From positions 10,511-74,510 of the forward strand of contig CAYSNL010000001.1 of the NCBI GenBank assembly GCA_964432435.1: 64,000 bases of DNA, written 5' to 3'. Numbering within the stretch: position 1 is the stretch's first letter; every line of letters starts with the position of its first letter. A program made the translations under genes and the position numbers. The DNA comes from Candidatus Woesearchaeota archaeon (GTDB lineage: Archaea; Nanobdellota; Nanobdellia; SCGC-AAA011-G17; JACPIM01). Shown piece by piece: positions 9,901 to 63,082 of this stretch. Below the pieces are notes generated by a model. It ran no database searches, was not told where the DNA came from, and saw nothing but the letters and a program-made list of their open reading frames with translations.

Positions 9901-11241
9901 ATTGCAGCATTAGTAAATGCATTACAAATAACCGATGCTGGGACTGCCACTGGTTTTGAAGAAGATGGAACTGGTGGAAGACTATGGGAGTCTATAACTG
10001 CTGTAAAGGGGACATTTACAACTTCTTCAGCTACAGTACCTGCTGATACTGGACGGACTGAAGCAAATGATTATTTTAATGGCGACATAATTATACCAAT
10101 ATCAGGTGATGTTGTAAGACAAGCTAGAGTAATTGCTGATTTTGCTAATGCTGGAGGAGTATTCACATTAGATTCTGAACTCCCCTTTACAGCGGTTCCT
10201 GGACTAGTTGACTATGTAATAATACATTGGAAATATCCTTTAGTTCCAGCAGTTGATTCTGCTGCTAATACTACATCTCCTCATGTAGTTGGAAATAAAT
10301 CTGATACTATACCTGCAATGAACCTGGCTCCAGCAAATGATTCTATTGTACGTCAATTAAAAGCTATCTTAGAGAGAGTAGGGGCTACTCCAGCTGACCC
10401 AGACGATTCTATATTAACTAATGTTGGTCAAAGAGATGACACAGCTACTGCTGATTCATTGGCAGATGTAACAACTACATCAATTCAGGCCAAATTAAGA
10501 AGGCTCTTATTACGATTTTCTGCTGATGCATTCAGCTCTACTGTACAAGGAGTAGCTAGAACTGATGTAGAAAATATGATCCAGGGACTAGCTAACTATC
10601 TATCAGCTGCTGGAGCTGCATGGTCTGTAACCGCTAATCCTGGAGCAGCTGCTAGAGATAACCTTGAGCAGACACTAGAAGATTTTGCAGACATGTTAGC
10701 TGGAACTACTGGAATAGTAACATTTCCAGCTGCAGCAGTAGCTGCCAATGGTATCTCAATAGCAGAAGTTTTGAGACATGTAATGGAGGCTGTTGGAGAA
10801 GACACAGCTAATAACGCATTTGCTTCAACTCTTGTAGCTGAAAATGGTGATGGTTCTGCTCTAGAAAGACTTGAAGAAATAAGAGGTAGAACTGCAACTG
10901 GAACATTTACTCAAACAGCTGCTATGGGGACAACTGTAAACACAGTAACAGAAATATCTCCGATTAGGCATGGACAAATAGCAGTAGAATTAGATATAAA
11001 CACATTGATTGCAGCCGCTGAAGGCGGGACAGTAATTGTTAGACTATTAAATATGATTGATGGGGCTACTTTACGAATAATTGACAGGGTTGATTTTACA
11101 ATTGGCGGGGCTAATGAAGTTCATCCTACAGTGAGAGGATGGGTACAAGAGGGCACTACGACAGCCAGGATTACAATTCAATTGAACTCTGCTGTTACTG
11201 TCAATAGGGATATACCATGGAGAATAATTGAGAGTGCATAA
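6991..11241 (+). CDS. Giant tail fibre / receptor-binding-like protein (1416 aa) with three copies of an ~85-aa repeat module
   Basis: Repeated module GTFTTSSATVPADTGR-E-DNYWNG...AFQPR...FANAGGVFT-D...PFTAAPGLV-YVI...TNTTPAHV-GNK-D at about aa 676, 795 and 1010. C-terminal domain shared with the 11763-13133 product. Confidence 0.75.
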   Translation: MGTISWKTIFFPQFEPGGLHAVNTGVNSRSLDDFESYTSDGALQAIWSVTGGAGAVTRTTAANALQGQQSLQTVVAGATGTINRAINNNIFAFPAGGRIRYVSFRGIVTTGTSAIRIRLSDASDATLYKEWAFTLGTDVTREHVVDLYSAAAGYQNQEGYPGPIAEGATAWNPLLIDRIEFRNLADGSTYRFDDIRFYYQYSLLDAIGFGTEPATDDGADGSLNSKIRYLNNIVLQLIGSTDEYNKYGPAEVRLNNSYTWGLELKGMAEQGIPTTTEITPGNYTIDRVRNGTTTNIVASTGATEAAGFISATYTPLEDNWVLGDEIVVTFSGGRVDSDTDTAVTPTANIGLGATTIALANAALFQAGQRIRIYDDLTTEYNTVASVDSPTQITVTATANAYTAANNFRVVLVERNDLQTARFAGNVSHQPEITAELERWVLADYDDFDFADADGNNERWDTGYIANTDGSAAGAEGGTADINTSVAGQARVRVDPDATPTRSAYAIKRDETFRSRYYSVMVDADVTLNTTEATATYAGLRISAGDVDDPANYIIITREASSGFNRISAHAEFNNIAQTDVNFSTTDNAVAFKIERYGNVWNLFYSLTQYPNWVWTKLTQYEDANGDMTSVTSAYLYAESVGTTDTQIATGDFDNWKYYIGSGAIDQILSTLVLATGTFTTSSATVPADTGRLEGDNYWNGTLIIPTNGVAAFQPRTIVAFANAGGVFTIDPEAVFTVAPAVGDEYAIVAYQYPLEPGTDATSNSASAHVVGSKADTAQYDGTSTNSSLVRLLRAVHRGEILASGTLTLSDTTNPADAGRTEADNYWNGSWLMTTAGAVAFQPRLITDFQNATGTFNLDSQQPFTAAPGLVAYVILAPNSQLVPTADAATNTTPAHVIGNKSDAASVTAGSASIIARLRAIEAALSVNTSAGGEFELDGTPDLWDALVTDSSAQADITTLTGNRDAAVIQRIAALVNALQITDAGTATGFEEDGTGGRLWESITAVKGTFTTSSATVPADTGRTEANDYFNGDIIIPISGDVVRQARVIADFANAGGVFTLDSELPFTAVPGLVDYVIIHWKYPLVPAVDSAANTTSPHVVGNKSDTIPAMNLAPANDSIVRQLKAILERVGATPADPDDSILTNVGQRDDTATADSLADVTTTSIQAKLRRLLLRFSADAFSSTVQGVARTDVENMIQGLANYLSAAGAAWSVTANPGAAARDNLEQTLEDFADMLAGTTGIVTFPAAAVAANGISIAEVLRHVMEAVGEDTANNAFASTLVAENGDGSALERLEEIRGRTATGTFTQTAAMGTTVNTVTEISPIRHGQIAVELDINTLIAAAEGGTVIVRLLNMIDGATLRIIDRVDFTIGGANEVHPTVRGWVQEGTTTARITIQLNSAVTVNRDIPWRIIESA

Positions 11242-28232: not shown

Positions 28233-28718
28233 ATGATAAAGCACCTTAAAATAAATTATCAAATCAAAGCCCAAGAAGTTAAGCTAATAAATGAAGAAGG
28301 AGAATTCAAGGGGATACACCCAATACAGCAAGCCTTAAATATGGCTATGGCATCAGGTCTAGATTTAGTTGAAGTATCTCCAGGAACTTGTAAAATTTTA
28401 GACTATGGGAAATTCATATACGAACAAAAGAAAAAACAGACAAAGCAGAAATTGCAAGATACTTTAGAAATTAGATTGTCTCCCAATATAAATAATCATG
28501 ATGTAGAATATAAAATTAAGCATGCAAAAAGAATCCTATCCCGAGGAGACAAAATTAAACTAATTATAGTCTTTAAAGGCCGTCAAATGCAGCATACAGA
28601 TTTAGGAATTGGATTATTAAAAACTGTGACTGAAAGGCTTATAGACACAGCTATTTTAGCAGATAATCCAAAATTAGAAGGAAAATATCTAAGTGTTACA
28701 GTAGCCCCGAAAAAGTAA
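28233..28718 (+). CDS. infC: Translation initiation factor IF-3 homolog
   Basis: Full-length colinear similarity to bacterial IF3: IKAQEVKL (IRAQEVRL), GLDLVEVSP (GVDLVEISP), CKILDYGKFIYE (CRIMDYGKFLYE), FKGRQMQH (FRGREMAH), TVAPKK (VLAPKK). Confidence 0.85.
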   Translation: MIKHLKINYQIKAQEVKLINEEGEFKGIHPIQQALNMAMASGLDLVEVSPGTCKILDYGKFIYEQKKKQTKQKLQDTLEIRLSPNINNHDVEYKIKHAKRILSRGDKIKLIIVFKGRQMQHTDLGIGLLKTVTERLIDTAILADNPKLEGKYLSVTVAPKK

Positions 28719-29421: not shown

Positions 29422-29760
29422 ATGGTAATAGCATCTTGTATTTCTACAGCACGTAAATATAGTAAGTCTTCAGAGGAAAATTATAAGATAACTGCATTCC
29501 TTGTTCGTAATGGTAAGCCATTTTCTATTGCTACAAATCTTGGATGGAAACATGCTGAGGCCAGGTGCATAGACCAGGCGTCCTCAGAAAAGATAAAGAA
29601 TTCTATAATGTATGTTATTAGAATCACAAAAGAAGGATTAGGAATAGCAAAGCCTTGCAAGAAATGCCAAGGTCTAATCAAAGACACTACAATAAAGAAA
29701 GTCTATTATACAACTAACGATAATACATTAGAAACGTGGGAGTTCCATGAAACTGATTGA
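29422..29760 (+). CDS. Small cytidine/deoxycytidylate deaminase-fold protein
   Basis: HAE (WKHAEARCI) and PCxxC (AKPCKKCQGLI) zinc-binding motifs of the CDA superfamily. Confidence 0.5.
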   Translation: MVIASCISTARKYSKSSEENYKITAFLVRNGKPFSIATNLGWKHAEARCIDQASSEKIKNSIMYVIRITKEGLGIAKPCKKCQGLIKDTTIKKVYYTTNDNTLETWEFHETD

Positions 29761-35846: not shown

Positions 35847-35921
35847 GGCGGGGTGGAGCAGCGGCAGCTCGTTGGGCTCATAACCCAAAGGTCGTTGGTT
35901 CGAATCCAACCCCCGTCTCCC
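35847..35921 (+). tRNA. tRNA-Met (anticodon CAU); anticodon stem has the three G-C pairs typical of initiator tRNA. A lysidine-type tRNA-Ile2 cannot be excluded
   Basis: Acceptor GGCGGGG/CCCCGTC. D-arm GAGC-AGCGGCA-GCTC. Anticodon arm TTGGG-CTCATAA-CCCAA. T-arm GTTGG-TTCGAAT-CCAAC. Confidence 0.75.
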
Positions 35922-36307: not shown

Positions 36308-36385
36308 GCAGCAATAGCTCAATTAGGTAGAGCAGATGTCTTATATACATCCAGGCTGAAGGTTCAAATCCTTCTTGCTGCACCA
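36308..36385 (+). tRNA. tRNA-Ile (anticodon UAU, reads AUA), with encoded CCA
   Basis: Acceptor GCAGCAA/TTGCTGC. D-arm GCTC-AATTAGGTA-GAGC. Anticodon arm GATGT-CTTATAT-ACATC. T-arm GAAGG-TTCAAAT-CCTTC. Discriminator A then CCA. Confidence 0.7.
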
Positions 36386-38313: not shown

Positions 38314-39513
38314 ATGATTAATTTACTATATGATCTACAGCTAAGCGTATTAGACTCATTAGATGACGGGAATTTTATTATGACTACGGACTCTAATGTA
38401 AATGTAGCCACTGTATTGATAAAAAATTTACTTAATTTGTCTAATAACATAAAAATTTATGTTTTAGTGCCGCCAAAGTCTAAAATCCTAAACTTTAAAA
38501 ATTATTTATTAAGTGACATACAATCTTCCAATTTAGACTTTATTGAGTACAAATATTATGGAAATCCGTTCGTAGATAGGATGTCCTTTTTTAGTCGAGA
38601 TTTAATTCAATCTCTGAAGAACTTGAAAGTTGATATTGTCTATACTAATGATCCATGCAAAGTTCTGGGGTATAAGACAGTGCTATATAGTCTATTATCA
38701 AAACCGGTTCCAGTGATGTCCAGAAATCACTGGGTGACCGGAAAGACAGACTATAAGGTTCCACAATACATTGACTTTGCTCTTAGACAATGCGAAGGAG
38801 CTTTGTATTCTGATAATGCTACTTTCAATTCAAAATTTGCTGTCGATTCATTCTTATATAATGCAGAACAATACTTGAATAAAGAGACGATAGAGTCACT
38901 GTCTAAAAAATTAGATCATATAGAATGTGTAGACATAGATAAAATTGATCAATATAGAACTGATGAAAAGTTTGATGAATTTACTATGATTTTTGCAAAT
39001 AGACTTAGTTATTACACTGGATGGAAAGAGACATTAGACGCTATAAATAGACTATGGAAAAGACGAAAAGATTTTCAAGTCATAGTCCCAGACCCTGGAA
39101 ATAAATTCAAACAAGAAGACTTATTTTCTGAATATAATTTTATTAAGACAGTGAATAAAGATACTTGGACTCATGAAGATTACATAAAAACCTGTTGGAA
39201 AGTAGATGCCTGTATAGGTAACCATAAATATCCGGCTACTTGGGGCGGACTGGCTATAACAGAACCAATGGCAGCGTACAGTATTCCTATTATTCCTAAA
39301 AGACACGCTTATTTAGAAATGTTTGATTCAGACTCTCATTCTTTTTTTACTGATGAAAATGATCTTATTAGAGCCATTGAATTTTATTTAGACAATAGAG
39401 AAATTTTAGAGAAAGATAAGCTAAGAGCCAGAGCCTTTTGTGAAAAGAATCTTTCACCTCAAAAATTTGCTGAATTTATTTTAGATAAGCTTAATATGCT
39501 ATGCATATCATAA
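38314..39513 (+). CDS. GT-B (GT4-like) glycosyltransferase
   Basis: C-terminal WGGLAITEPMAAYSIPII matches the GT4 E-x7-E motif (EGFGLPVLEAMACGTPVIA type). Confidence 0.6.
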   Translation: MINLLYDLQLSVLDSLDDGNFIMTTDSNVNVATVLIKNLLNLSNNIKIYVLVPPKSKILNFKNYLLSDIQSSNLDFIEYKYYGNPFVDRMSFFSRDLIQSLKNLKVDIVYTNDPCKVLGYKTVLYSLLSKPVPVMSRNHWVTGKTDYKVPQYIDFALRQCEGALYSDNATFNSKFAVDSFLYNAEQYLNKETIESLSKKLDHIECVDIDKIDQYRTDEKFDEFTMIFANRLSYYTGWKETLDAINRLWKRRKDFQVIVPDPGNKFKQEDLFSEYNFIKTVNKDTWTHEDYIKTCWKVDACIGNHKYPATWGGLAITEPMAAYSIPIIPKRHAYLEMFDSDSHSFFTDENDLIRAIEFYLDNREILEKDKLRARAFCEKNLSPQKFAEFILDKLNMLCIS

Positions 39514-40436
39514 TAACTGGTTGTGATAAAACTGGAAAAAGTTTTTTGGCTAGAGAGTTAAGCAAACGTTTATATTTTCCAGTTATCAATAGGCTAGTTC
39601 CAAAACAAAATATTTTTATAGAATGTATTGACACGTTAACTGAATTAAAAAGTCCAATGATAATAGATAGATTTCATATAGATGAAGAAGTCTATGGACC
39701 AATAAAACGTGGAAAAAGTAGATTTGATTTTAGACAATATAAGATAATAGAGCTTTTGATGTTGATGTTAAAAACAGTTAATGTTTATTGTATAGATTCG
39801 GAAAGTTCAATTCAGTCTAGAATAAACTTATCAAAAGAAAATGAATACATATCTAGTAACGAAGTCAACATAATTTTACGGTCATATGATAATTGCTTAA
39901 GGACCAGTATTTTAACTTGGAATACGTATAAATTAGGAGATGATATTAGTCCATTAGTAAGTTTGATACAAAAACAAACACTGAATTTAAGACGCAGACT
40001 TAATTTTTTGTCCTATAGGACAATAGGAAATTTACTCGGATCTATTTTAATAGTTGGAGATAGATATGGAGACAAATTATTGCCACCTCTAATTCCATTT
40101 GGTAATAATGAGCCAGGACTAAGATTATTTTTAGCTTTAGAAAAGTCTAATCTGTCTTGGTCTGATATAATAATAACTAACTCAATTAAATTAAATAAAA
40201 ATGAAATCGGACTAGAAATTGACAATAAAAAAGCTTTAATTGAAGAATGTTCTTTGCCGAATATAAAAGTCATAGTCTGTTTGGGAAATAACGCGTATAA
40301 TAATGTATTGGCCATTAAACCAAAAATTTCGAACAATGTCATAATAAACAAAATACCTCACCCGAGTGCTTGGTTTGTCTATCAAAATAAATCCATAGAA
40401 AGTTATTCGAGACTAATAGATGCAGCAATACTTTAA
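39501..40436 (+). CDS. P-loop (deoxy)nucleotide kinase-like domain fused to a UDG-superfamily-like domain
   Basis: N-terminal IIITGCDKTGKSFLAREL Walker A. C-terminal IPHPSAWF (HPS motif B of uracil-DNA glycosylase fold) preceded by ILIVGDRYGDK in the motif A position. Confidence 0.45.
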   Translation: MHIIITGCDKTGKSFLARELSKRLYFPVINRLVPKQNIFIECIDTLTELKSPMIIDRFHIDEEVYGPIKRGKSRFDFRQYKIIELLMLMLKTVNVYCIDSESSIQSRINLSKENEYISSNEVNIILRSYDNCLRTSILTWNTYKLGDDISPLVSLIQKQTLNLRRRLNFLSYRTIGNLLGSILIVGDRYGDKLLPPLIPFGNNEPGLRLFLALEKSNLSWSDIIITNSIKLNKNEIGLEIDNKKALIEECSLPNIKVIVCLGNNAYNNVLAIKPKISNNVIINKIPHPSAWFVYQNKSIESYSRLIDAAIL

Positions 40437-42384
40437 AAAATCAATGACGTTGGTTAAGTCTAAATTAGACTTTTCAGATCTTTTAAGGTTTATTGCAAAG
40501 TCACAAAGCCTAGTCATAGATACTGAGACTTCAGGTCTAAGACTATGGCAAGATGATTTTGTGTCTGCTATTGGGATTGGAGATATAGACAGACAATTTT
40601 TTCTAGATTTGCGTCCTGATTGTTTGGATTATGAAATTAGTTTAAGTGAACTATTTGACTCTTTAAGAAAGACTAAAGTTATTATTGGCCATAATATAAA
40701 ATTTGACTTAGCCGGCCTATTAAGACTAGGATACGAGGTTCCAGATAATCAAGAAATTCATGACACAATTGTAATGGCTAGGTTGTTATCAATAGAAAGA
40801 TTTCCTAAGTTAGGTCTCACTCCTTTAATCCAACAGTACATTTCAGAGTTTGGTAGTCAATATGATATAGACTTTAAGCAGTTCTTAAAGACTAATAAAA
40901 TAAAGCTGTATTCTCAGTCCCCTAGTTTAGAGCTTGGGATCTACTGTTTAAATGATGTTTACTATACAGCTAGTCTATATGAAAAATTTAAACAATCATT
41001 AGTTTCTTTAAACTTGGTTGGACTTTGGAATCATGAGATTAAAGTAACTAAGACAGTTTGGAAAATGGAAAAACAAGGAGTTTTAATAGACAAGAAATAT
41101 TGTAGCACGGCCTTAAGTGTAATTAGCTTAAAGTCTAAGCAATTGGAGTCTGAAATTAACGAAGTGGCTGGTGAAGATGTAAACTTAGGAAGTAACAAAC
41201 AGCTATCAAAATTTTTTAGGGGTCTTAAATTAGAGGCTCCAACAAAAACTAAGAAGGGGGGCGAAAGTTGGGGAGAGGCTTCTTTAATTTTATTAGACCA
41301 TCCAGTAGCTAAGAAATTGTTATCTTGGAGAGGACTTCAAAAATTAAAGACATCATATTTTGAGACATACTTAGAAAGAGAAAGTCCATTACATTGCTCA
41401 TTTAAAAACTGGGGTACTGTTACTGGACGGTTTTCTTGTGTTGATCCTAATTTTCAACAGCTACCTAAAGAATTGACTAAAATTTTTGATGAAGATGAGA
41501 CTAAAGAACTGTCAGAATTTCAAAAGGCTGCCATAGCCTTAGTGAAGGCTGATAAAGAACGCCAAGGAGGCGGTAAACTTTTAATAAAGTCTGTGTCTTC
41601 ATATGAAGATGATATATTTGATGAAGAGAAACACATTTCTGCTAAGAGGTCTATAGTTCCTAGAGATGGAAATGTTTTTCTTAGTTTTGACTATTCTCAA
41701 ATGGAACTTAAGATTTTATTTTTTTATCTAAACAATGATGAAGCTAGACAATATTTGAGTGATCCAGACTGGGATGGGCATTCTTGGGTGGCCACTAAAA
41801 TTTGGGGGATTTCAGATAAAGATCCTAGTTTTCCAGCTTTCCGAAAATTAGCCAAGGCTATAAACTTTGGAATTATATACGGAGAAGGTGATAGACTATT
41901 AGCGGCTCAACTAGGGAAGACTGTTAACGAAGCTAAGAAGTTTAGAGAAGAGTATTATGCTAAAATTCCTGGAATAAGAGATCTGATTAATGGGATTCAT
42001 AAAAAGGTACAGACTAGAGGATATGTTTTCAATTACTTTGGACGGAGATATTATGCAGACCAAGACAGAGAATATGTTTTATTAAATTATTTAATCCAAG
42101 GAACGAGCGCTGATTTAATTAAAAATAGAATGGTGGCGATTGATAATGATTTAGAATTAAGGTCTATTGGACTAAAGCTAATCTTACAAATTCATGATGA
42201 ACTAATTTTTGAATGTCCAAAAGATAAGATTGATTATTCAGTTAAACTAGTTAAACAGATTCTAGAATTTCCAGTTCTAAAGGTTCCATTGGCCTCTAAA
42301 GCATATATTCACTATCCTAGTTTGGCTAGTAAATTTGATTATGGATTAAATTGGAGAGATAATGCTGGACTTTCAATCAATTGA
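40420..42384 (+). CDS. Family A DNA polymerase (Pol I-like) with 3'-5' exonuclease domain
   Basis: Exo I LVIDTETSGL; motif B RKLAKAINFGIIYG; motif C LQIHDELIFE. Confidence 0.9.
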   Translation: MQQYFKKSMTLVKSKLDFSDLLRFIAKSQSLVIDTETSGLRLWQDDFVSAIGIGDIDRQFFLDLRPDCLDYEISLSELFDSLRKTKVIIGHNIKFDLAGLLRLGYEVPDNQEIHDTIVMARLLSIERFPKLGLTPLIQQYISEFGSQYDIDFKQFLKTNKIKLYSQSPSLELGIYCLNDVYYTASLYEKFKQSLVSLNLVGLWNHEIKVTKTVWKMEKQGVLIDKKYCSTALSVISLKSKQLESEINEVAGEDVNLGSNKQLSKFFRGLKLEAPTKTKKGGESWGEASLILLDHPVAKKLLSWRGLQKLKTSYFETYLERESPLHCSFKNWGTVTGRFSCVDPNFQQLPKELTKIFDEDETKELSEFQKAAIALVKADKERQGGGKLLIKSVSSYEDDIFDEEKHISAKRSIVPRDGNVFLSFDYSQMELKILFFYLNNDEARQYLSDPDWDGHSWVATKIWGISDKDPSFPAFRKLAKAINFGIIYGEGDRLLAAQLGKTVNEAKKFREEYYAKIPGIRDLINGIHKKVQTRGYVFNYFGRRYYADQDREYVLLNYLIQGTSADLIKNRMVAIDNDLELRSIGLKLILQIHDELIFECPKDKIDYSVKLVKQILEFPVLKVPLASKAYIHYPSLASKFDYGLNWRDNAGLSIN

Positions 42385-43249
42385 TTCTGCCTATACTGAG
42401 ATATTAAACATCTTAGATAAAGACGGATTTTTAAATAAGAGACGAAATGGAGAAGTAAAAGAATGCTATCATTTAATGATGTGTTTGTCTAATCCAAGAC
42501 ACAGAGTAATTCAAAATTCAAGCAGAAAGATAAGTCTATCAATGTTAGTCGGAGAATTTTTTTGGATTTTGTTTGGTAGAGATGATTTGGATTTTATATC
42601 CTTCTATAATTCAAAAATGATTGAATACTCCGATAATGGAAAGTCTTTATTTGGGGCATATGGAAAGCGTTTGACTAGTCAATGGTCTGGAGTTATAGAA
42701 AGAATCTTATCTGATAAACTAACTAGACAGGCAGTATTACCGATTATAGATAAAAGTGACTCTACGGCTATGACTAAAGATTTTCCATGTAATAATCTTC
42801 TTCATTTTTGGAGTCAAGACGGCACTAGTCTAAATTTAACCGTGTATATTAGATCTCAGGATATGTTTTTAGGATTTCCGTATGATGTTTTTCATTGGAC
42901 AATGTTTTTAGAGAACATGGCTATGACTTGTAATATGAGACTTGGGAAATACTATCATATAATGCAAAATTGTCATTATTACATTAAAGACTATGAAAAA
43001 GTTCAGTTGATAAAACAAGCTAATAGTTTTGTTAGTTTACCAATGAACTCTATATTAGAAAGTTGTTTTGATAAGTCTGTAGAAAATAGACTAATAGAAT
43101 CAGAATCAAAAACTCGGCAGAACGGGGTTTATGTAAACTTATTCGATGAAAAGTCAATTTGGTCAGACTTTATAAAAATAGTTCAGCATAGAAAAAGCAA
43201 TAAAAAAGTTTCTTTATTTGATGGAGCTTTAACTAATGTCTATAGATAG
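42362..43249 (+). CDS. ThyA-family pyrimidine C5-modifying enzyme, predicted deoxycytidylate hydroxymethylase
   Basis: Aligns with thymidylate synthase: FGAYGKRLTSQW (YGKQWRAW); DFPCNNLLHFW (APCHAFFQFY, catalytic Cys retained, PCH to PCN); RSQDMFLGFPYDVFHW (RSCDVFLGLPFNIASY). The substrate-specifying Asn is replaced by Asp, as in T4 dCMP hydroxymethylase. NCHYY (DTHLY). Confidence 0.65.
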   Translation: MLDFQSIDSAYTEILNILDKDGFLNKRRNGEVKECYHLMMCLSNPRHRVIQNSSRKISLSMLVGEFFWILFGRDDLDFISFYNSKMIEYSDNGKSLFGAYGKRLTSQWSGVIERILSDKLTRQAVLPIIDKSDSTAMTKDFPCNNLLHFWSQDGTSLNLTVYIRSQDMFLGFPYDVFHWTMFLENMAMTCNMRLGKYYHIMQNCHYYIKDYEKVQLIKQANSFVSLPMNSILESCFDKSVENRLIESESKTRQNGVYVNLFDEKSIWSDFIKIVQHRKSNKKVSLFDGALTNVYR

Positions 43250-43580
43250 ATTATTCAAAGATCAAGTTAGATTTACAGATAAGATCATTAATGATTTAAG
43301 TGTGAATGTATCTAAAACTGAGTTAATAAAAGAATATTTGCTGTCTTTGCATGATGAACTATCAGAAATTCTTCATTGCACAAATTGGAAATGGCATAGA
43401 GAAGATTACGGATCAGACATAGACTATGAGAATTTATATGTGGAATTAATAGACACACAAAAGTTTTTATGGGGGCTGATGCATATTTGTGGAATGGACA
43501 TAAATAAGTTTGAAGAAGTGTATGATAAGAAAAGTAAAATTGTAGAAGAGCGTTTAATGAAATTGAAAGGGAAACAATAG
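43236..43580 (+). CDS. MazG-like all-alpha NTP pyrophosphohydrolase (candidate dCTP/dUTP-clearing enzyme)
   Basis: 114 aa all-helical with acidic cluster (ELSEILHCTNWKWHREDYGSDIDYEN...ELIDTQKFLWGL); position between the ThyA-like gene and ThyX. Confidence 0.45.
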   Translation: MSIDRLFKDQVRFTDKIINDLSVNVSKTELIKEYLLSLHDELSEILHCTNWKWHREDYGSDIDYENLYVELIDTQKFLWGLMHICGMDINKFEEVYDKKSKIVEERLMKLKGKQ

Positions 43581-44363
43581 TTGAGTCAATTAATTCTACC
43601 TAAGGTATTCATCATAGGAGAGTCTAAGATTGATTCTGTTGGTTTGCAACAATTATTAAACCATTTGAGTGTTCCTGCATGGAAATCAGATGCTGACACC
43701 GATGTAGAAAAACTTCTGGAAGTCTATGGAAGGGCTTGCTATAAGTCATTTGATGTTATTCTAAATCCTAATTTAACTCGTGTAAGAAAGCACAATGATG
43801 AATACATAAAGAACATTATAGAAAAAGGAGACGGTAGTGTATTAGAACATGGTATGATTAATTTCTTTTTTGCTGATGTGAGTAGAGTTTTTACCCATGA
43901 GTTAGTTAGGCATCGTGTCGGAACAGCCATAAGTCAAGAGAGCTTAAGATTTGTTAGATTGACAGATTTGAACTGGTACGCCCCAATTTGTATTCAAGAG
44001 GATGTTCAGGCTATGGAGATTTTTTCAAGGACACTCAATAGTTTAAGTCAACTTCAAAAAGACTTGGCAGACCTATATAATATAGATAACATGTCTTTTG
44101 AGAAGAAAAAGGAATTAACTTCAGCTTTTAGACGTCTTGCCCCTGATGGGTTAGCTACAAATATCGGGTGGTCTGCAAATATTAGAACAATTAGACATGT
44201 ATTGGAGATGAGGACTAATCCCTCAGCTGAGGAAGAAATCCGATTAGTCTTTTCTCAAGTAGGAAAACTAATGAGGGAAAGATATAAGACGTTGTTTGAT
44301 GACTATGAGACCGAGATTGTTAATGGAATTGATTGGTACAAAACTAAACATAGAAAAGTATAA
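43581..44363 (+). CDS. thyX: Flavin-dependent thymidylate synthase ThyX
   Basis: ThyX signature RHR-x7/8-S: HELVRHRVGTAISQES; TTG start. Confidence 0.8.
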   Translation: MSQLILPKVFIIGESKIDSVGLQQLLNHLSVPAWKSDADTDVEKLLEVYGRACYKSFDVILNPNLTRVRKHNDEYIKNIIEKGDGSVLEHGMINFFFADVSRVFTHELVRHRVGTAISQESLRFVRLTDLNWYAPICIQEDVQAMEIFSRTLNSLSQLQKDLADLYNIDNMSFEKKKELTSAFRRLAPDGLATNIGWSANIRTIRHVLEMRTNPSAEEEIRLVFSQVGKLMRERYKTLFDDYETEIVNGIDWYKTKHRKV

Positions 44364-44766: not shown

Positions 44767-45246
44767 ATGGTAAATAGACCTTCATGGGATGATTACTTCT
44801 TGGGGATTGCTAAAGTTGTAAGTAGCAGGGCTTCATGCCCTAGGGCAAGCTCAGGATGTGTTTTAGTTCTAGATAAGAGAATTTTGTCTACAGGTTATAA
44901 TGGGGCTCCTGTTGGAGAAAAGACGTGTTTAGATATAGGATGTAATGTAAAAGACAGACATTGTGTCAGGGCAGTACATGGCGAAAGAAATGCCATTTTG
45001 TGGGCTGAAAAATATTTTTCAGTAAAGCAACTAAAGGAAGCGACTTTGTACGAATACTATGCAGCTCATAGCGATGAATCAGTAAAGAATTATTATCCTT
45101 CTCAAGATTCTGTAGAGTCATTAGACTTTTTTCCGTGCAAACCATGTAAAGAATTGATGTTAGATAGAAAAATCAAAGAAGTAATTTGTCAATATGGGAA
45201 TGGAATTATAAAAGTCTATAAGAACTATCATATTGGAGAAAAGTAA
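44767..45246 (+). CDS. Deoxycytidylate (dCMP) deaminase
   Basis: HGERNAILWA (HAE-type zinc ligand motif) and FPCKPCKELM (PCxxC). Confidence 0.75.
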   Translation: MVNRPSWDDYFLGIAKVVSSRASCPRASSGCVLVLDKRILSTGYNGAPVGEKTCLDIGCNVKDRHCVRAVHGERNAILWAEKYFSVKQLKEATLYEYYAAHSDESVKNYYPSQDSVESLDFFPCKPCKELMLDRKIKEVICQYGNGIIKVYKNYHIGEK

Positions 45247-53097: not shown

Positions 53098-54585
53098 ATG
53101 TATCAAGTCATCGGGAAAAATTATATAAATGGTCAATGGGTGGAGCTCAAGAATCATTTTTATTCATTAAATCCGTCTAATACAAATGAAGATATCGGGA
53201 TTTTTCCTCAGTCTGTATATTCTGAAGTAGATTTAGCTGTTGAGGCTGCAAAAGATGCCTTTAGATCTTGGAAAAGTTTGTCTAGAATTAATAGGGCGGA
53301 GTATTTTAATGCATTTGTAAAAAATGTGGAGAAAAATTTTGATGAACTTGTGCATTTAATGTGTAGGGAAAGCGGAAAACAAATAAATGAATGCAAAGCT
53401 GATGTAATTGAAGGGATTCATATGGCTCAATATAACTTTGGTAGAGCAAGGATGCCATATGGAGAAGTAATGGCATCAGAAATTGCTAGTAAGGATGCAT
53501 TTATGTTGCGAAAACCAAAAGGGGTAATCGCAGCAATAACTCCTTGGAATTTTCCGTTTGCTATTCCTTTATGGTTAATTATTCCATCTTTGCTAGAAGG
53601 AAACACTGTTGTATTCAAACCGTCAGAAGACACTCCTGCTGTAGGAGAATTTTTAGTTAAAATGTTTGATGAAGTTAGTTTACCCCCAGGAGTATTAAAT
53701 CTAGTTCAGGGAGATGGGGGGACTGGATGGGATTTAGTTACAAATACTGATATTAAGGTAGTGTTATTTACTGGCTCCTATGCTGTTGGGTCTAAAATTA
53801 GGAAAGAATGTGCTGGTTCTATAGACAAAATGGCAGTGTGCGAGATGGGCGGGAAAAACGCTATTATTGTGTTGGAAGATGCAGATTTGGATTTAGCAGT
53901 AAATGCATGCATTTTAAGTGCCTTCAAAACTGCTGGTCAAAGATGTGTATCTGCTTCCAGATTGATAGTTCATAGGTCTATTTTGAAAGAATTTGAGGAT
54001 AAATTTGTAAATAAGGCTAAAAATTTAATAGTTGGGGATCCTCTTGATTCAAGCACCTTTATGGGGCCAGTAATAAATCTAGAGGCTATTAATAAAATTT
54101 TGTCTTATAATGATATGGCTCGGAAAGAGGGTGTTGAAATATTATTAAATGGTTCCAGACTTGTAGAAGGGAAATATTGGGATGGGTATTTCATGTCTCC
54201 ATTTGTATATGAAACGGAAAATAGATTTTCTAAAGTCTTGAAGGAAGAGGTGTTTGGGCCTCATGTGGCTATTATCCCATTTGATACATTAGAAGATGCA
54301 GTCAGTCTATATAATAGTACTGATTATGGTTTTGCATTAGCTGTAATATCTAATGATTATCGTAAGATTAAATATTTACAGCAGAATTGTGATTTTGGAG
54401 TGGGATATGTAAATCTTCCCAGCATAGGCGCAGAAGTTCATTTGCCATTTGGTGGTACAAAGAAGAGTGGTTCTGGGATGCCTTCAGCCTCTGCTTTAAT
54501 TGATGCTGTAACACACAGAGTAGCCTGGACTGTTAACTATGCAGATGAAATTCAATTAGCCCAAGGATTAAATGCAAAGGTATGA
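53098..54585 (+). CDS. NAD(P)-dependent aldehyde dehydrogenase
   Basis: ALDH Glu site CEMGGKNAI, Cys site FKTAGQRCVSASR, cofactor-binding FTGSYAVGSKI, and WNFPFAIP. Confidence 0.9.
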   Translation: MYQVIGKNYINGQWVELKNHFYSLNPSNTNEDIGIFPQSVYSEVDLAVEAAKDAFRSWKSLSRINRAEYFNAFVKNVEKNFDELVHLMCRESGKQINECKADVIEGIHMAQYNFGRARMPYGEVMASEIASKDAFMLRKPKGVIAAITPWNFPFAIPLWLIIPSLLEGNTVVFKPSEDTPAVGEFLVKMFDEVSLPPGVLNLVQGDGGTGWDLVTNTDIKVVLFTGSYAVGSKIRKECAGSIDKMAVCEMGGKNAIIVLEDADLDLAVNACILSAFKTAGQRCVSASRLIVHRSILKEFEDKFVNKAKNLIVGDPLDSSTFMGPVINLEAINKILSYNDMARKEGVEILLNGSRLVEGKYWDGYFMSPFVYETENRFSKVLKEEVFGPHVAIIPFDTLEDAVSLYNSTDYGFALAVISNDYRKIKYLQQNCDFGVGYVNLPSIGAEVHLPFGGTKKSGSGMPSASALIDAVTHRVAWTVNYADEIQLAQGLNAKV

Positions 54586-54628: not shown

Positions 54629-54865
54629 ATGATATGGCAAGATATTGTAATAATGATTGGCCAAGTCTTATTTTCAATTTCGTTAATTCCAATTTTGCGG
54701 GCTAAAACTAAGCCTCCAAAGTTTACGTGTTTTTTAACAGCCAGTATTTTAGGCAGTTTCTTTATAACATTTGGGACATTGTCTTTATGGATGTCAATGT
54801 TTTCATGTCTCCTAAATGGAACTTTATGGTGTTGGATAGGATTACAGAAAGGCATAAGAATATGA
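54629..54865 (+). CDS. Small integral membrane protein
   Basis: 78 aa, two hydrophobic helices; ATGA coupling to the HAD gene. Confidence 0.35.
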   Translation: MIWQDIVIMIGQVLFSISLIPILRAKTKPPKFTCFLTASILGSFFITFGTLSLWMSMFSCLLNGTLWCWIGLQKGIRI

Positions 54866-55419
54866 ATATAGCTATAGATATTGAAGGGACTGTTGCTGAT
54901 GTGCACGAAGCATTTTTACAATGGTTTAATACTAAGTATGACACTAATTTTACGATTAAAGATATTGACAATTGGAATATAGCAAAGACAAAATTAGGAA
55001 TAACAACATCAGAGTTTATTGAATCTCTTAGAAAGCTATGGAAACAACAATGCACTATGACTTTGACAGATAGTAATATCCCAAAGATAATTGATAGGTT
55101 AATAGATTCAGGGCATAGAATTTATTTTGTGACTGCTCATTATGAGGTCGCGCCACAAATTATTGATTGGATTAATAAGAATAGACTAAAACATTCGGGC
55201 TTCATGGCTGTAAAGAATACAGAAGTAAAGAAGATTCTTTCATTTGATTTATTTATTGATGATTGCCCATTATTAGTGGAATCTTTAGGGCACCGACTTT
55301 TTTTATATAATAGACCATATAATACAAATACAAAAGCTATTAATCGTTTTACTGATTTTTCAGAATTAACTAATCGAATAAACATGTGGCCAAGGAGGGG
55401 AGAGAATGAAAGCTTGTAA
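54862..55419 (+). CDS. HAD-superfamily phosphatase / 5'(3')-deoxyribonucleotidase-like
   Basis: N-terminal DxDxT motif MNIAIDIEGTV. Start set to the ATG at 54862 rather than the track start 54727. Confidence 0.55.
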   Translation: MNIAIDIEGTVADVHEAFLQWFNTKYDTNFTIKDIDNWNIAKTKLGITTSEFIESLRKLWKQQCTMTLTDSNIPKIIDRLIDSGHRIYFVTAHYEVAPQIIDWINKNRLKHSGFMAVKNTEVKKILSFDLFIDDCPLLVESLGHRLFLYNRPYNTNTKAINRFTDFSELTNRINMWPRRGENESL

Positions 55420-56495: not shown

Positions 56496-58121
56496 GTGTC
56501 CCAATCTCTTTTGACATACAAACAAGCACTAACTAATCTAGCTGATAGTTTATTAACTAGAGACGAAAAGTCCATCAAAATAGGTGGATTTTATGAATTT
56601 GTAAGGGATATTTGGTCTAAAAGTTATGAGCATCCTGAGCGTTTCAAGATGTTCCACATCGAAGTAATATGCCATGATGTAGAAGAAGCATTAGCTACTG
56701 GTAAAAATTATGTTTGTGTTCTTCCTCGAGGGTTTTTAAAGTCAACGGTGCCTGGATATGCTTTTTGTATTTGGCGTTTATTGAAAATGGGAAATTCAGA
56801 CAGTACAATTCTTTATACATCATTTTCAGATGGGATGAGTCAATACCATATATCTGAAATGAAGAAACATATAAGGCGTAATCCAATTCTTTCTGAATGG
56901 ATGATAGACAGGAGTCCAAATGCTGACTTTTCATTTAGATATTCTGTAAATGGATTCCAAAAGAATATTTTACATGGTGGGGTTTTGTCATTCAAAAGAG
57001 GGACCCACGTAGATGGGGCAGTGGTGGCGGATGATCTCTTACAGGACCCAGATAATCCAGCCAGGCCTACAGAGATATTAAAGGTTGAAGAATTTTTCTT
57101 TTCAGAGACAATGTATATTCCTAATCCAGGAGTGCCAGTCTTTGTATTAGGGACTCCCTTATTACCGGACGATCTATTATCAAAGCTTAAAAAAGATGAT
57201 CGTTTTTTGTATCGTTTTATGCCGGCCTTAGACCCAATTCCAGGAAGAAGAGTTTTAGCCCCAGAAATTAGAGATGAAGCCCAGTTGTTAAGAGAAAAAG
57301 CTGCAAGACCTCACGCTTTTGCAGCAGAAATGATGCTATCTCCTATGTCTTCTGTGAAGGGATATTTTACTGATACTGATATTAGTAGATGTGAAAATAA
57401 AGATTTAGCATCATTTGATCCATACAAAGAATGGGATTTTAACAGTGAGTTTACAGTTGCTGGGTTTGATGTGGGAAAAAAGAGGCACCCCTCTCATCTA
57501 GCTGTTTATGCAAGTAAAGGAGGTGTACTGAAACAAGTTCATCAAGTATTTCTAGATGGATGGGATTATAATATTCAAAAAGAATATTTAAATACAGTAG
57601 CCAAAAATTTTGCTCTTGATGTAGGATACTATGACAGCACCAGAGGAGAATTAGACGATAGGGGGCTAGATTCTAGGTGGAAGTCATTAAATTTTACCTT
57701 GAAAGACAAGAGAAAAATGGCCCAGGTGTTTGAAGAATTTGTTCAATCAGGAAATTTATCTCTTATTGTTGATGAACGTCAAAAATCGCAAATATTGGCA
57801 GTGGATAATGACTTAGATGCAGCAGAGAGTCCGCTCGGGCATGGAGATTCATTTTGGTCTAATGCTTTAGCATTATTAGCATACAAAGACAAGACAACAG
57901 TTGGGACGCAAGATGTTGGAAATGTTCAGGATATATTTGGAAACGATAAGACTAAAGAAAATATTAATTTTAAAGAATTTGTGCAACCAATAAATTTAGG
58001 CACAGGATGCCCTAATTGTAAAGAATTTGTAGGCTGGATAGAAGAAAGAAAATTATGCTTGATTTGCCAGCATAGATGTAATGATAATTGTATTCATACT
58101 GGAGAGAAAAATGGGGGCTAA
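56496..58121 (+). CDS. Terminase large subunit
   Basis: Deviant Walker A of terminases (VCVLPRGFLKSTV), acidic nuclease-like C-terminal half; GTG start. Confidence 0.55.
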   Translation: MSQSLLTYKQALTNLADSLLTRDEKSIKIGGFYEFVRDIWSKSYEHPERFKMFHIEVICHDVEEALATGKNYVCVLPRGFLKSTVPGYAFCIWRLLKMGNSDSTILYTSFSDGMSQYHISEMKKHIRRNPILSEWMIDRSPNADFSFRYSVNGFQKNILHGGVLSFKRGTHVDGAVVADDLLQDPDNPARPTEILKVEEFFFSETMYIPNPGVPVFVLGTPLLPDDLLSKLKKDDRFLYRFMPALDPIPGRRVLAPEIRDEAQLLREKAARPHAFAAEMMLSPMSSVKGYFTDTDISRCENKDLASFDPYKEWDFNSEFTVAGFDVGKKRHPSHLAVYASKGGVLKQVHQVFLDGWDYNIQKEYLNTVAKNFALDVGYYDSTRGELDDRGLDSRWKSLNFTLKDKRKMAQVFEEFVQSGNLSLIVDERQKSQILAVDNDLDAAESPLGHGDSFWSNALALLAYKDKTTVGTQDVGNVQDIFGNDKTKENINFKEFVQPINLGTGCPNCKEFVGWIEERKLCLICQHRCNDNCIHTGEKNGG

Positions 58122-61162: not shown

Positions 61163-63082
61163 TTGAAAATATCAGAATATCTTCCAGAGTTACCTGGTCT
61201 AATGCAGCAAGAGCAAAGATTAACTTCTCTTGCTGATCAATTGTCTCTAATAAAAGCTGATTCAGATACATATCGTGCCCCGTCCCTTGGCCTCGATACA
61301 ATTATAAATACCTGGCTTAGAAATCAGTTAGTATATCGCCAAAATATGATGACTGATTTAATGAGAATTTCTAAAACTATAGAAGAAATACGAGCGCCGA
61401 TTCATCATATAACTGCCGAAGTATTTCGTAGGGGTATTTCATGGAAGCCAAAATTCGCTGTTAAGTGCCAGGAATGCCAGACAGAATATAATGATGTCAT
61501 GAAAGAATGTCCTAAATGTCATTCTACAGACCTAATATCTCCAGATGAAGGACAGAAGAAAAAATTAGAAAGTTTTCTTATTGACTGTAACATATTTGAT
61601 AATAGTTTAGAAGAAGTTTTAAGACAGTTTAATTATGACTTAAATGCACTTGATGATGCATTCCTGTATCTCGTTAAAGAATACATGGCTGCTGAAGACG
61701 GAAAAATTAGATCTAAAGTAATCGAAGTGAGGCGATTGGATCCAGCCTTTATGGAGTTTGATTTAGATCCACAAGGTCTTCCTAAGAATAAGTCATTTCT
61801 TTGTTATATTCATAGAGATATAAATGTAGCCACAACTCCTGGGGCTTGTATTGAATGTGGCAGAACATTAGTCCCAGCAATGTATAAATACTATCACAGA
61901 AATAAGCCGATGTATTTGCTTGATACTGAAGTGATACATTCTTCAAAATTTGACCCGAGCGAAACTTACGGTTGGAGCCCCATATTAACTATTTTTGAAA
62001 AGGCAATGACTATTATCGGCATGGATCGTAATATGTATCGTTATTTCTTTGAGCGCAAAATGCCTGCAGGGATGATAATGGTGTTTACGGATAACCCAGA
62101 GAGTCTTATAAAAGAACGGGCAGAGTTAGCCTTAAAGACTAGACAAGACCCAAATTATATTCCAATGGTTGCTGTATCGTCTAAAGGAAATCGTGGAAGA
62201 GTGGACTTTGTAAAGTTATTTCATACATTACAAGAAATGGACTATATGCCTGTAAGAAATGAAATAAGAGAGAGAATAGCATCTATGTGGGGAGTTACCC
62301 CAGCTTGGCAAGGTGCCCCAGATGCATTTGGTGGTATTTCAAATCAGACACAACAATTAACAGTGATGTCTCGTGTAGTAGAAACAGATCAGAGATTATT
62401 TCACGATAAAGTTTTTCCTAGAATTATGGATTCATTTGGAATAACTGATTGGGAGTTAGAGCTTCCCATACCAGAAGAGAAAGCAGAAGCTACCAGAATT
62501 TCATTTGCTCAGCAAAAAATTAGTGCAGCAAATATGCTTCTCCAAATGGGCTTTGATGTAAAGGCTAAATCTCAGGAAGTCGGATTAATTGATATTGATT
62601 TTGTAGTATCTGGTGAAGCAAAGAAGATAGATTATAGTTCAATGATGGGTGGAGGACAAGGGGGACTAGGTGGAATGGGGGGAGAAGGACTGCCAGGAGG
62701 GATTCCTGGATTAGAATTACCTGAAGAAGAGCAACCAAGTCAAAACCAATCACAGCAATACCCTGAACAAGGTTTGAGACTAATGGAAAAAGCACACGGA
62801 TGGGCAGACCAGATATTAAAAGCTGGATATTTTCCGATGATAAAACAAGTAAATCCAGTTGGGCCTGTGATTTGGTTTACTCAAAATAATACTGATTATG
62901 TGGCTAAGTTTGATAATAATATTTTGAAGGATATAAGTAAGGCAATCTTTCCCCGACTTCATGCACATGACGGTCGTCCTCCTCATGATCCAAATATTCC
63001 CCATAATACAGTAGATAGAAAATTACAGAGTGACAGCAAGATTTTCGAAGCAGAAGAGCCAGACGAAGTTGATAATGAATAG
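61163..63082 (+). CDS. Candidate portal protein (639 aa) with inserted zinc ribbon and Gly-rich acidic C-terminus
   Basis: Size and position downstream of terminase genes. CQECQ...CPKC ribbon. C-terminal GGGQGGLGGMGGEG then acidic tail. Confidence 0.4.
   Translation: MKISEYLPELPGLMQQEQRLTSLADQLSLIKADSDTYRAPSLGLDTIINTWLRNQLVYRQNMMTDLMRISKTIEEIRAPIHHITAEVFRRGISWKPKFAVKCQECQTEYNDVMKECPKCHSTDLISPDEGQKKKLESFLIDCNIFDNSLEEVLRQFNYDLNALDDAFLYLVKEYMAAEDGKIRSKVIEVRRLDPAFMEFDLDPQGLPKNKSFLCYIHRDINVATTPGACIECGRTLVPAMYKYYHRNKPMYLLDTEVIHSSKFDPSETYGWSPILTIFEKAMTIIGMDRNMYRYFFERKMPAGMIMVFTDNPESLIKERAELALKTRQDPNYIPMVAVSSKGNRGRVDFVKLFHTLQEMDYMPVRNEIRERIASMWGVTPAWQGAPDAFGGISNQTQQLTVMSRVVETDQRLFHDKVFPRIMDSFGITDWELELPIPEEKAEATRISFAQQKISAANMLLQMGFDVKAKSQEVGLIDIDFVVSGEAKKIDYSSMMGGGQGGLGGMGGEGLPGGIPGLELPEEEQPSQNQSQQYPEQGLRLMEKAHGWADQILKAGYFPMIKQVNPVGPVIWFTQNNTDYVAKFDNNILKDISKAIFPRLHAHDGRPPHDPNIPHNTVDRKLQSDSKIFEAEEPDEVDNE

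Follow-up and report, generated by a model that had tools for sequence, protein, structure and literature searches.

What does a gene of the thymidylate synthase (TS) superfamily make in a phage that also carries a thymidylate synthase of another family? The question is raised by an open reading frame (ORF) at positions 42362-43249 of a 64,000-nucleotide (nt) stretch of contig CAYSNL010000001.1 (GenBank assembly GCA_964432435.1, filed under Candidatus Woesearchaeota archaeon), which covers contig positions 10,511 to 74,510 and is called the window hereafter. The window is DNA of an uncultivated phage, with all substantial ORFs on one strand; positions below are those of the window, and the genes and codons of the module under discussion are on the forward strand. 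An initial annotation had described the ORF as a ThyA paralog with the motif PCN instead of PCH and with aspartate at the substrate-specificity position. We predict that the product of this TS-like ORF, in which a TS fold is joined to a C-terminal helical domain like that of MilA, is a pyrimidine C5 hydroxymethylase that depends on folate and acts specifically on deoxycytidine monophosphate (dCMP), that is, a dCMP 5-hydroxymethylase or 5-hydroxymethyl-dCMP (5hm-dCMP) synthase. We put the probability of this reading at about 0.7.

The TS-like ORF encodes 295 amino acids from an ATG start, and its first 23 nt overlap the 3' end of the gene for a family A DNA polymerase. The protein is a member of the TS superfamily by its match to Pfam PF00303 (E value [E] 7.4e-20; 71.6 bits against a gathering score of 24.3), and it also matches phrog_5131 (E 1.4e-50). 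The catalytic cysteine is kept, as had been claimed, in the motif DFPCNNLLHFW, which starts at residue 140 (codons 42779-42793 read DFPCN). Cys143 (codon 42788-42790; C146 in E. coli ThyA and C148 in T4 gp42) occupies a column that is invariant in our alignments, including one of 168 sequences. When the protein was compared with PDB sequences by phmmer, the top match was MilA, a cytidine monophosphate (CMP) 5-hydroxymethylase (E 3.9e-20, 75 bits), with TS at an E of about 1e-13. In MAFFT alignments the protein is 21% identical to E. coli ThyA, 15% to T4 gp42 and 30% to SPO1 gp29. BLASTP against T4 gp42 gave an E of 0.011 over 44 residues, and the protein falls outside the gp42 orthologous group.

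Relatives of the TS-like ORF are usually annotated as thymidylate synthase in public records, which would make it an ordinary, divergent TS redundant with the ThyX encoded nearby. We consider this highly improbable. The profile comparison with TS families that had been proposed for this gene returned the PF00303 match, yet the NCBIfam thymidylate-synthase equivalog models score the protein at 27-65 bits, below every one of their cutoffs (108-427). Three residues of canonical ThyA are all replaced (D175 for Asn177, N144 for His147 and D140 for Leu143), and a MilA-like helical domain stands in place of the TS C-terminal tail. The term ThyA paralog is loose, given the low identity to E. coli ThyA and T4 gp42 and a window that itself lacks ThyA.

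The predicted structure places the protein closest to MilA. An AlphaFold2 model built on 75 homologs has a predicted local distance difference test score (pLDDT) of 96.6, and its top PDB matches in Foldseek are seven MilA chains (E down to 2.5e-24; query TM-score [TMq] 0.84-0.86). The superposition on MilA spans the full length (TMq 0.86, 295-297 columns), including the extra C-terminal helical domain, whose predicted helices cover residues 208-219, 238-254, 266-279 and 288-294 of the model. Canonical TS structures come next, at a TMq of about 0.67, with a probability of 1.00 to many of them. Residues E65, Y100, R28, R122, C143, R164, S165, D167, H205 and Y207 align with E58, Y94, R21, R126, C146, R166, S167, D169, H207 and Y209 of E. 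coli ThyA, and equivalents of Cys148, Glu60 and Tyr96 of T4 gp42 are all present (C143, E65 and Y100). Judged from alignment and model, the fold and the catalytic apparatus are intact.

As MilA is the best solved match by both sequence and fold, C-terminal helical domain included, the gene might be thought to encode a CMP hydroxymethylase of the MilA or BcmA type, making hydroxymethyl-CMP for a small molecule or for RNA. The sugar-specificity residues speak against this. The preference of MilA for ribo-CMP is set by Lys133 and Ala176, and the double change K133R/A176S flips it to dCMP and abolishes CMP activity (Zhao et al. 2016, PMC5175136). The TS-like ORF has the extra helical domain but carries Arg122 and Ser165 at these two positions, the deoxyribose type. 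Its gene also lies between a DNA polymerase and the deoxynucleotide-pool enzymes of a phage, and Pfam and PHROG scans found no MilB-like N-glycosidase among the genes of the window. We regard a CMP-specific enzyme as very unlikely.

The choice of base is indicated by Asp175 (codon 42884-42886), at the pyrimidine-specificity position that corresponds to E. coli N177, L. casei N229, T4 D179 and MilA D186. Codons 42875-42889 read FPYDV, within the motif FPYDVFH from residue 172. HMMER sets the query segment flgfpyDvfhw opposite flgvpfDiasy of the L. casei N229D enzyme and gavsDvfsf of MilA. Three MAFFT alignments, drawn from E. coli ThyA, T4 gp42, SPO1 gp29, a ViI-like enzyme, phage G gp319, MilA, a PaMx74 homolog and metagenomic homologs, put Asp175 in the column of E. 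coli ThyA Asn177. The E. coli sequence used agrees with the numbering in the literature at W80, Y94, A142, L143, C146, H147, Q165, S167, C168, D169, G173 and N177. The two methods thus agree on aspartate, with no alignment placing asparagine there, and the equation with T4 Asp179 made in the initial annotation is upheld by T4 gp42, whose D179 (checked in its sequence) falls in the same MAFFT column. Aspartate also fills this column in MilA, phage G gp319, PaMx74 and all close homologs, and Asp175 is invariant across the 75-sequence family alignment. By one of the experimentally anchored rules summarized by Lee et al. 2026 (PMC13326640), N177D confers dCMP specificity.

By score, the closest characterized phage relatives are enzymes that act on deoxyuridine monophosphate (dUMP), namely SPO1 gp29, at the 30% identity given above, and the ViI-like enzyme, at about 100 bits. 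They share with the TS-like ORF the motifs TRQAV and TKDxPCN and a long C-terminal extension, and these likenesses could suggest a dUMP hydroxymethylase that feeds thymine hypermodification. Both dUMP enzymes, however, have asparagine in the 177 column, as does E. coli ThyA, and again at E. coli position 165, where the TS-like ORF has Ile163. The window makes ordinary thymidylate (dTMP) by ThyX, and no homolog of the helix-hairpin-helix (HhH) glycosylase-fold transferases that accompany the 5-hydroxymethyluridine DNA kinase (5-HMUDK) was seen in domain scans of the window. A dUMP hydroxymethylase has, in our estimate, only a slim chance of being correct. Alignment, marker residues, the MilA fold and T4-like neighboring genes agree on a cytosine-nucleotide enzyme of the gp42 type, as first proposed, rather than one of the dUMP type.

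Two further residues bear on the product. Asp140 (codon 42779-42781; E. coli L143, T4 D145) aligns at a site where an acidic residue goes with hydroxymethyl products and not with methyl ones, and Asp167 (codon 42860-42862) retains E. coli D169, the residue whose change to asparagine marks flavin-dependent 5-hydroxy-dCMP synthases (PMC13326640). Asp175 and Asp140 together with a kept Asp167 make up the pattern of 5hm-dCMP synthases. A flavin-dependent 5-hydroxy-dCMP synthase, as in RB69 (gp48), DLP3 (gp80) and HY126, would instead yield 5-hydroxycytosine, later glycosylated through an ether link. Such phages share with the window the aspartate at 177, an acidic residue at 143 and an adjoining glycosyltransferase and deoxynucleoside monophosphate (dNMP) kinase, and the solved flavin-dependent dCMP monooxygenase 9iqc is detectable as a structural relative, at rank 27 in Foldseek. 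This match is far weaker (TMq 0.61, phmmer E 4e-10) than that to MilA (TMq 0.86, E 4e-20), and the D169N signature is absent, with Asp169 kept in 162 of 168 relatives. We assign this alternative little probability.

The signature itself is widespread. An exhaustive HMMER search returned 106 cluster representatives at E <= 1e-30 and 4,616 at E <= 1e-10, and among the 168 nearest family representatives aspartate is present at 177 in 164 and at 143 in 163. The residue after the catalytic cysteine, Asn144 in the TS-like ORF where TS has His147, is threonine in 123 of these representatives, asparagine in 37 and histidine in none; SPO1 gp29, a dUMP hydroxymethylase, likewise reads PCN. The PCN motif noted at the outset is therefore real and not peculiar to this gene, and PCN with aspartate is typical of a large metagenomic family. 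The MetaGPA study had already, and independently, picked out positions 147 and 177 as those with the strongest association with cytosine modification of metavirome contigs (Yang et al. 2021, PMC8670742). A later report ties TS homologs co-located with dCMP deaminase, a phosphoribosyl-ATP pyrophosphohydrolase (PRA-PH) and PolA experimentally to cytosine-modified viral DNA, and states that most TS homologs in such neighborhoods carry dCMP-type residues (bioRxiv 10.1101/2024.12.05.627091). Earlier publications on viral metagenomes already cover the switch from Asn to Asp, the missing His147 and the link with deaminase, NTPase and PolA genes.

The genes around the TS-like ORF resemble a T4-like set for cytosine nucleotides. 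The polymerase gene that it overlaps, at 40420-42384, encodes a PolA (PF00476, E 2e-73) with a 3'-5' exonuclease domain (PF01612, E 3e-16). Immediately downstream, at 43236-43580, lies a 114-amino-acid all-alpha nucleoside triphosphate (NTP) pyrophosphatase of the dimeric-dUTPase or T4 gp56 class (phrog_173, E 5e-6). Its family aligns with the T4 gp56 dCTPase/dUTPase in hhalign at a probability of 83% (E 8.7e-6), it matches dimeric dUTPases in the PDB at E 2e-5, and its orthologs match PF08761 (dUTPase_2). We predict a dCTPase/dUTPase, a gp56-class homolog that would clear dCTP from the pool. The next gene, at 43581-44363, is a bona fide flavin-dependent thymidylate synthase, ThyX (PF02511 [Thy1], E 1.1e-33; TIGR02170, 88.7 bits against a cutoff of 87.9), two genes downstream of the TS-like ORF, just where the initial annotation had placed it. 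A dCMP deaminase analogous to T4 cd follows at 44767-45246 (PF00383, E 3e-14; phrog_174, E 7e-31) and is 35% identical to phage G gp317; after it come a Dam-type methyltransferase and a RecA-like recombinase.

Upstream of the polymerase, at 39501-40436, a P-loop kinase resembling deoxynucleoside and thymidylate kinases (residues of about 1-160) is fused to a domain with the fold of family-4 uracil-DNA glycosylases (UDG; residues of about 175-300). The fusion protein matches phrog_761, thymidylate kinase, and Pfam UDG above its gathering score (E 4e-6). In a profile search of the PDB the kinase domain finds YorR of SPbeta (2axp, E 6e-24) as well as deoxynucleoside and thymidylate kinases, and the C-terminal domain matches family-4 UDGs (E 2e-5). 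In the UDG-fold domain, motif A reads GNNEPG and motif B reads HPS. We favor a mononucleotide kinase for the first domain, on profile similarity, and predict it to be a putative 5hm-dCMP kinase, a functional analog of T4 gp1. A DNA kinase like 5-HMUDK, with a glycosylase-fold partner as in thymine hypermodification, seems less likely to us: the profile fits small-molecule deoxynucleoside and thymidylate kinases, in a comparison that included no 5-HMUDK sequence.

Preceding the kinase-UDG gene, at 38314-39513, is a glycosyltransferase of GT-B fold and GT4-like, retaining type. The Pfam match is weak (Glycos_transf_1, E 4e-5), and the family profile gave only a marginal GT1 match to PDB sequences (E 0.07); the GT-B/GT4-like assignment emerged by fold comparison. 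The AlphaFold2 model has a pLDDT of 92.6, and Foldseek matches it to GlgM, glycogen synthase, MshA, BshA and PglA (E down to 4e-13). Gene linkage suggests 5-hydroxymethylcytosine (5hmC) in DNA as its target, and we predict a role in the glycosylation of 5hmC-containing DNA. BLASTP and tblastn with T4 gp1, gp56, alpha-glucosyltransferase (alpha-GT) and beta-glucosyltransferase (beta-GT) found nothing among the neighboring proteins or in the whole window, and the link to gp56 comes by profile comparison only.

Two side observations concern nucleotide metabolism in the window. Besides the dCMP deaminase, a second, short protein with the cytidine/deoxycytidylate deaminase fold (112 amino acids) is encoded at 29422-29760 on the forward strand. 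Nucleotidases of some phages that carry substituted bases take a canonical dNMP out of the pool; an NT5C-type deoxy-pyrimidine 5'-nucleotidase at 54727-55419 (forward strand; Pfam E 4e-9) could help to do so here.

Related phage contigs show that parts of this neighborhood recur together. The closest homolog of the TS-like ORF, at 49% identity, is on contig L005, which is syntenic, with the order kinase, reversibly glycosylated polypeptide (RGP) glycosyltransferase-like protein, UDG, PolA, TS-like, dUTPase_2-like and dCMP deaminase; kinase and UDG are separate genes there. The RGP-family protein (PF03214, L005:5268-6236) between the two hints that the sugar chemistry of that phage is different. 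On contigs L012, L013 and L097, from phages with a family B polymerase (PolB), an Asp-type TS homolog has as its neighbors a glycosyltransferase ortholog at 49-55% identity, a full-length ortholog of the kinase-UDG fusion at 49-52% and an NTPase ortholog at 34-39%. The TS homologs of these PolB phages belong to a different, T4-like subclade, 26% identical to the TS-like ORF, and they show the gp42-type signature, including the aspartate, at 14 of 14 marker positions.

We examined six contexts of the glycosyltransferase and kinase-UDG pair (the window, L012, L013, L097, L096 and L095). A complete TS-like gene lies within two genes of the pair in four of them (the window, L012, L013 and L097); L096 ends inside a TS-like gene, and the 8 kb of L095 that we retrieved contain none. 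The kinase-UDG fusion forms 17 protein clusters at 40-56% identity, with copies at L012:4058-5059, L013:11224-12138, L097:2085-3017 and L002:3474-4469. In the window and in L012, L013 and L095 the next gene downstream of the fusion encodes a DNA polymerase of family A or B; in L097 a TS-like gene lies between the two. Phage G gp315 is 24% identical to the fusion over its full length. The glycosyltransferase family comprises more than 30 clusters at 40-55% identity, with orthologs beside kinase-UDG and TS-like genes in other phage contigs, and is a candidate new family of DNA glycosyltransferases. The accessory genes are linked to two different lineages of Asp-type TS homologs, and we consider this linkage the strongest contextual argument that a single pathway, directed at a C5-modified cytosine nucleotide, unites them.

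The only serious alternative to a dCMP hydroxymethylase is a dCMP methyltransferase, a 5-methyl-dCMP synthase of the Xp12 or PaMx74 type, in which tetrahydrofolate would supply a hydride and 5-methylcytosine (5mC) would replace cytosine. Phage PaMx74 reportedly contains 5mC. Its TS homolog served as a methyl-type control; it has aspartate at 177, asparagine at 143 and proline at 147, with an adjacent dihydrofolate reductase (DHFR). Aspartate at 177 is common to enzymes of the Xp12 and PaMx74 type, and the engineered N229D TS is a dCMP methylase (PMC8670742; PDB 1njc). The later report describes production of 5-methyldeoxycytidine (5mdC) in five of seven tested Asp-type TS homologs that have dCMP deaminase, NTP pyrophosphatase and PolA beside them (bioRxiv 10.1101/2024.12.05.627091).

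Against a methyltransferase, position 143 of the TS-like ORF is aspartate, as in every known hydroxymethylase, rather than leucine as in E. coli or asparagine as in PaMx74. A linked glycosyltransferase needs a hydroxyl acceptor, and the phage's own ThyX makes a route to dT through deamination of 5mdC unnecessary. The characterized enzymes among the nearer relatives (the ViI-like enzyme, SPO1 gp29 and MilA) are all hydroxymethylases. Methyl-transfer chemistry also requires the DHFR that PaMx74 encodes next to its enzyme, and none was found in the 64-kb window by tblastn with E. coli FolA and PaMx74 Frd, a search of limited sensitivity. The window gene has neither the non-acidic residue at 143 nor, within the window, the DHFR partner of a dCMP methyltransferase. 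Neither hydroxymethylation nor ThyX produces dihydrofolate, so the apparent absence of DHFR fits a phage that uses these two reactions. On balance we consider a methyltransferase unlikely.

Several observations weigh against a dCMP hydroxymethylase and its proposed partners. The assignment draws on marker residues and context and not on orthology, as the low identity to T4 gp42 makes plain. The rule for position 143 is a correlation, which we checked against one methyl-type homolog, that of PaMx74, whose activity is itself deduced from relatives. The same neighborhood of Asp-type TS, deaminase, NTPase and PolA occurs in phages with 5-methyl-dC. The kinase has no similarity to T4 gp1 detectable by BLASTP or tblastn. 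The glycosyltransferase family shows no meaningful similarity to T4 alpha-GT or phage G gp313 in hhalign (probabilities of 12% and 2%), and a tblastn search with the glycosyltransferase found no match at E 1e-3 in 50,697 phage genomes.

From homology, residue identities, fold and recurrent gene linkage, we would picture the substrate, the product and all downstream steps as follows. Cys143 of the hydroxymethylase would attack C6 of dCMP, and 5,10-methylene-tetrahydrofolate would donate a methylene group to C5. The resulting exocyclic methylene intermediate would be captured by water, with no hydride reduction, giving 5hm-dCMP and tetrahydrofolate. Asp175 may read the N3/N4 face of cytosine and exclude uracil, and Arg122 and Ser165 would favor the deoxyribose form. 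Asp140 may admit the water, as it stands where the hydrophobic Leu143 of TS shields the intermediate. The kinase domain of the kinase-UDG fusion would then phosphorylate 5hm-dCMP, and the gp56-like pyrophosphatase would remove dCTP and give back dCMP. PolA would incorporate 5hm-dCTP, and the GT4-like glycosyltransferase would decorate 5hmC in the DNA after replication. The dCMP deaminase would supply dUMP to ThyX as the phage's source of dTMP. By analogy, the module is predicted to follow the T4 logic of replacing cytosine with 5hmC or glycosyl-5hmC.

Other genes that mark the window as phage DNA encode a large terminase (56496-58121), a portal protein (61163-63082), a ribonucleotide reductase, SNF2 and DnaB helicases, a primase, a RecA/UvsX recombinase and a Cas4-like nuclease. 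We also observed four tRNAs (His, Leu-TAA, Met and Ile-TAT; 26458-26662, 35847-35920 and 36308-36385), a sigma-70 region 2 protein (27491-27955, forward strand) and a full-length translation initiation factor IF-3 (28233-28718, forward strand; Pfam IF3_N, E 4e-23, and IF3_C, E 1e-25). A complete aldehyde dehydrogenase is encoded at 53098-54585 (forward strand; Pfam E 3e-135) and may be an auxiliary metabolic gene. Its best match among GTDB species genomes is a Dehalococcoidia metagenome-assembled genome (MAG) at 57% identity, with no relatives in the candidate phyla radiation (CPR), a result that is uninformative about the host. The public record of a Candidatus Daviesbacteria (CPR) MAG lists, on a 109,932-bp contig, a hypothetical protein identical to that of the TS-like ORF. 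We take the Daviesbacteria label as a binning assignment only; the phage may infect a CPR bacterium, or the contig may have been mis-binned. A megablast search with 14 kb around the TS-like gene against the 50,697 phage genomes gave no match, and hence no close cultured relative.

The replacement of cytosine in phage DNA is a well-known anti-restriction strategy. If our reading is correct, this phage swaps cytosine for 5hmC, probably glycosylated, which would protect its DNA from many restriction enzymes and some CRISPR-Cas systems and would also skew how such genomes are sequenced and binned. The TS-like ORF would extend the known dCMP hydroxymethylases by a divergent lineage that resembles MilA, as a new example and not a new kind of strategy, and in itself it leaves current understanding unchanged. 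Less to be expected were its two uncharacterized partners, the conserved kinase-UDG fusion and the GT4-like candidate family of DNA glycosyltransferases, which may be of enzymological or biotechnological use. A bolder idea, which we advance tentatively and with more doubt than confidence, is that the gp56-like NTPase, the glycosyltransferase, the kinase-UDG fusion and an Asp-type TS homolog form a previously uncharacterized mobile cassette for cytosine hypermodification, one that combines with either PolA or PolB and with two subclades of dCMP hydroxymethylase. In such a cassette the glycosyltransferase would represent a new family acting on 5hmC in DNA, and the UDG fold would serve a new purpose: it might, for example, tether the synthesis of modified dNTPs to the replisome, or recognize or flip the modified base in DNA.

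Among known systems, T4 offers the closest parallel in predicted reaction and pathway logic, with gp42 (PDB 1B5E), the gp56 dCTPase, the gp1 kinase, alpha- and beta-glucosyltransferases, cd and td. The TS-like ORF matches gp42 at E65 (T4 E60), D140 (D145), C143 (C148) and D175 (D179), in the kept D169 equivalent and in the histidine and tyrosine for the 3'-OH, and the NTPase of the window is a detectable homolog of gp56. It differs from gp42 in having glutamine at R127, asparagine rather than threonine after the cysteine, and a helical domain of 88 residues at the C-terminus, against 28 C-terminal residues in T4. The pathways differ as well: the window's kinase is unrelated to gp1 and fused to a UDG fold, its glycosyltransferase is unrelated in sequence to alpha-GT, its dTMP comes from ThyX rather than the ThyA-type td, and its polymerase is of family A rather than family B.

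The TS homologs of the MetaGPA metaviromes share the 147/177 signature and the dCMP deaminase, NTP pyrophosphatase and PolA neighbors. In the available parts of those reports (PMC8670742; bioRxiv 10.1101/2024.12.05.627091), the kinase-UDG fusion and the GT4-like family are not described, and many of the tested enzymes made 5mdC. The closest cultured-phage homolog is gp319 of Bacillus phage G (31% identity, E 1e-45), with aspartate at both 177 and 143. It lies in a cluster with gp315, a "thymidylate kinase" made up of kinase and UDG fold, the dCMP deaminase gp317 and, nearby, the alpha-glucosyltransferase gp313. Unlike the window gene as read here, gp319 is annotated just as thymidylate synthase, and gp313 is not detectably related to the glycosyltransferase of the window; a literature search on DNA modification in phage G returned nothing relevant and no experimental data on gp319.

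The SPO1 gp29 and ViI-type enzymes resemble the TS-like ORF in the shared motifs and extension described above and in the aspartate at 143, and differ in the asparagines at 177 and 165 and in feeding 5-hydroxymethyluracil and thymine hypermodification. MilA (PDB 5B6D and 5JNH) serves mildiomycin biosynthesis in the secondary metabolism of Streptomyces, whereas the TS-like ORF is part of a phage replication module, and the two differ in the ribose-type Lys133/Ala176 of MilA as against Arg122/Ser165. With aspartate at both 177 and 143, no histidine after the cysteine and the same extra C-terminal helical domain, MilA is the best solved relative of the TS-like ORF.

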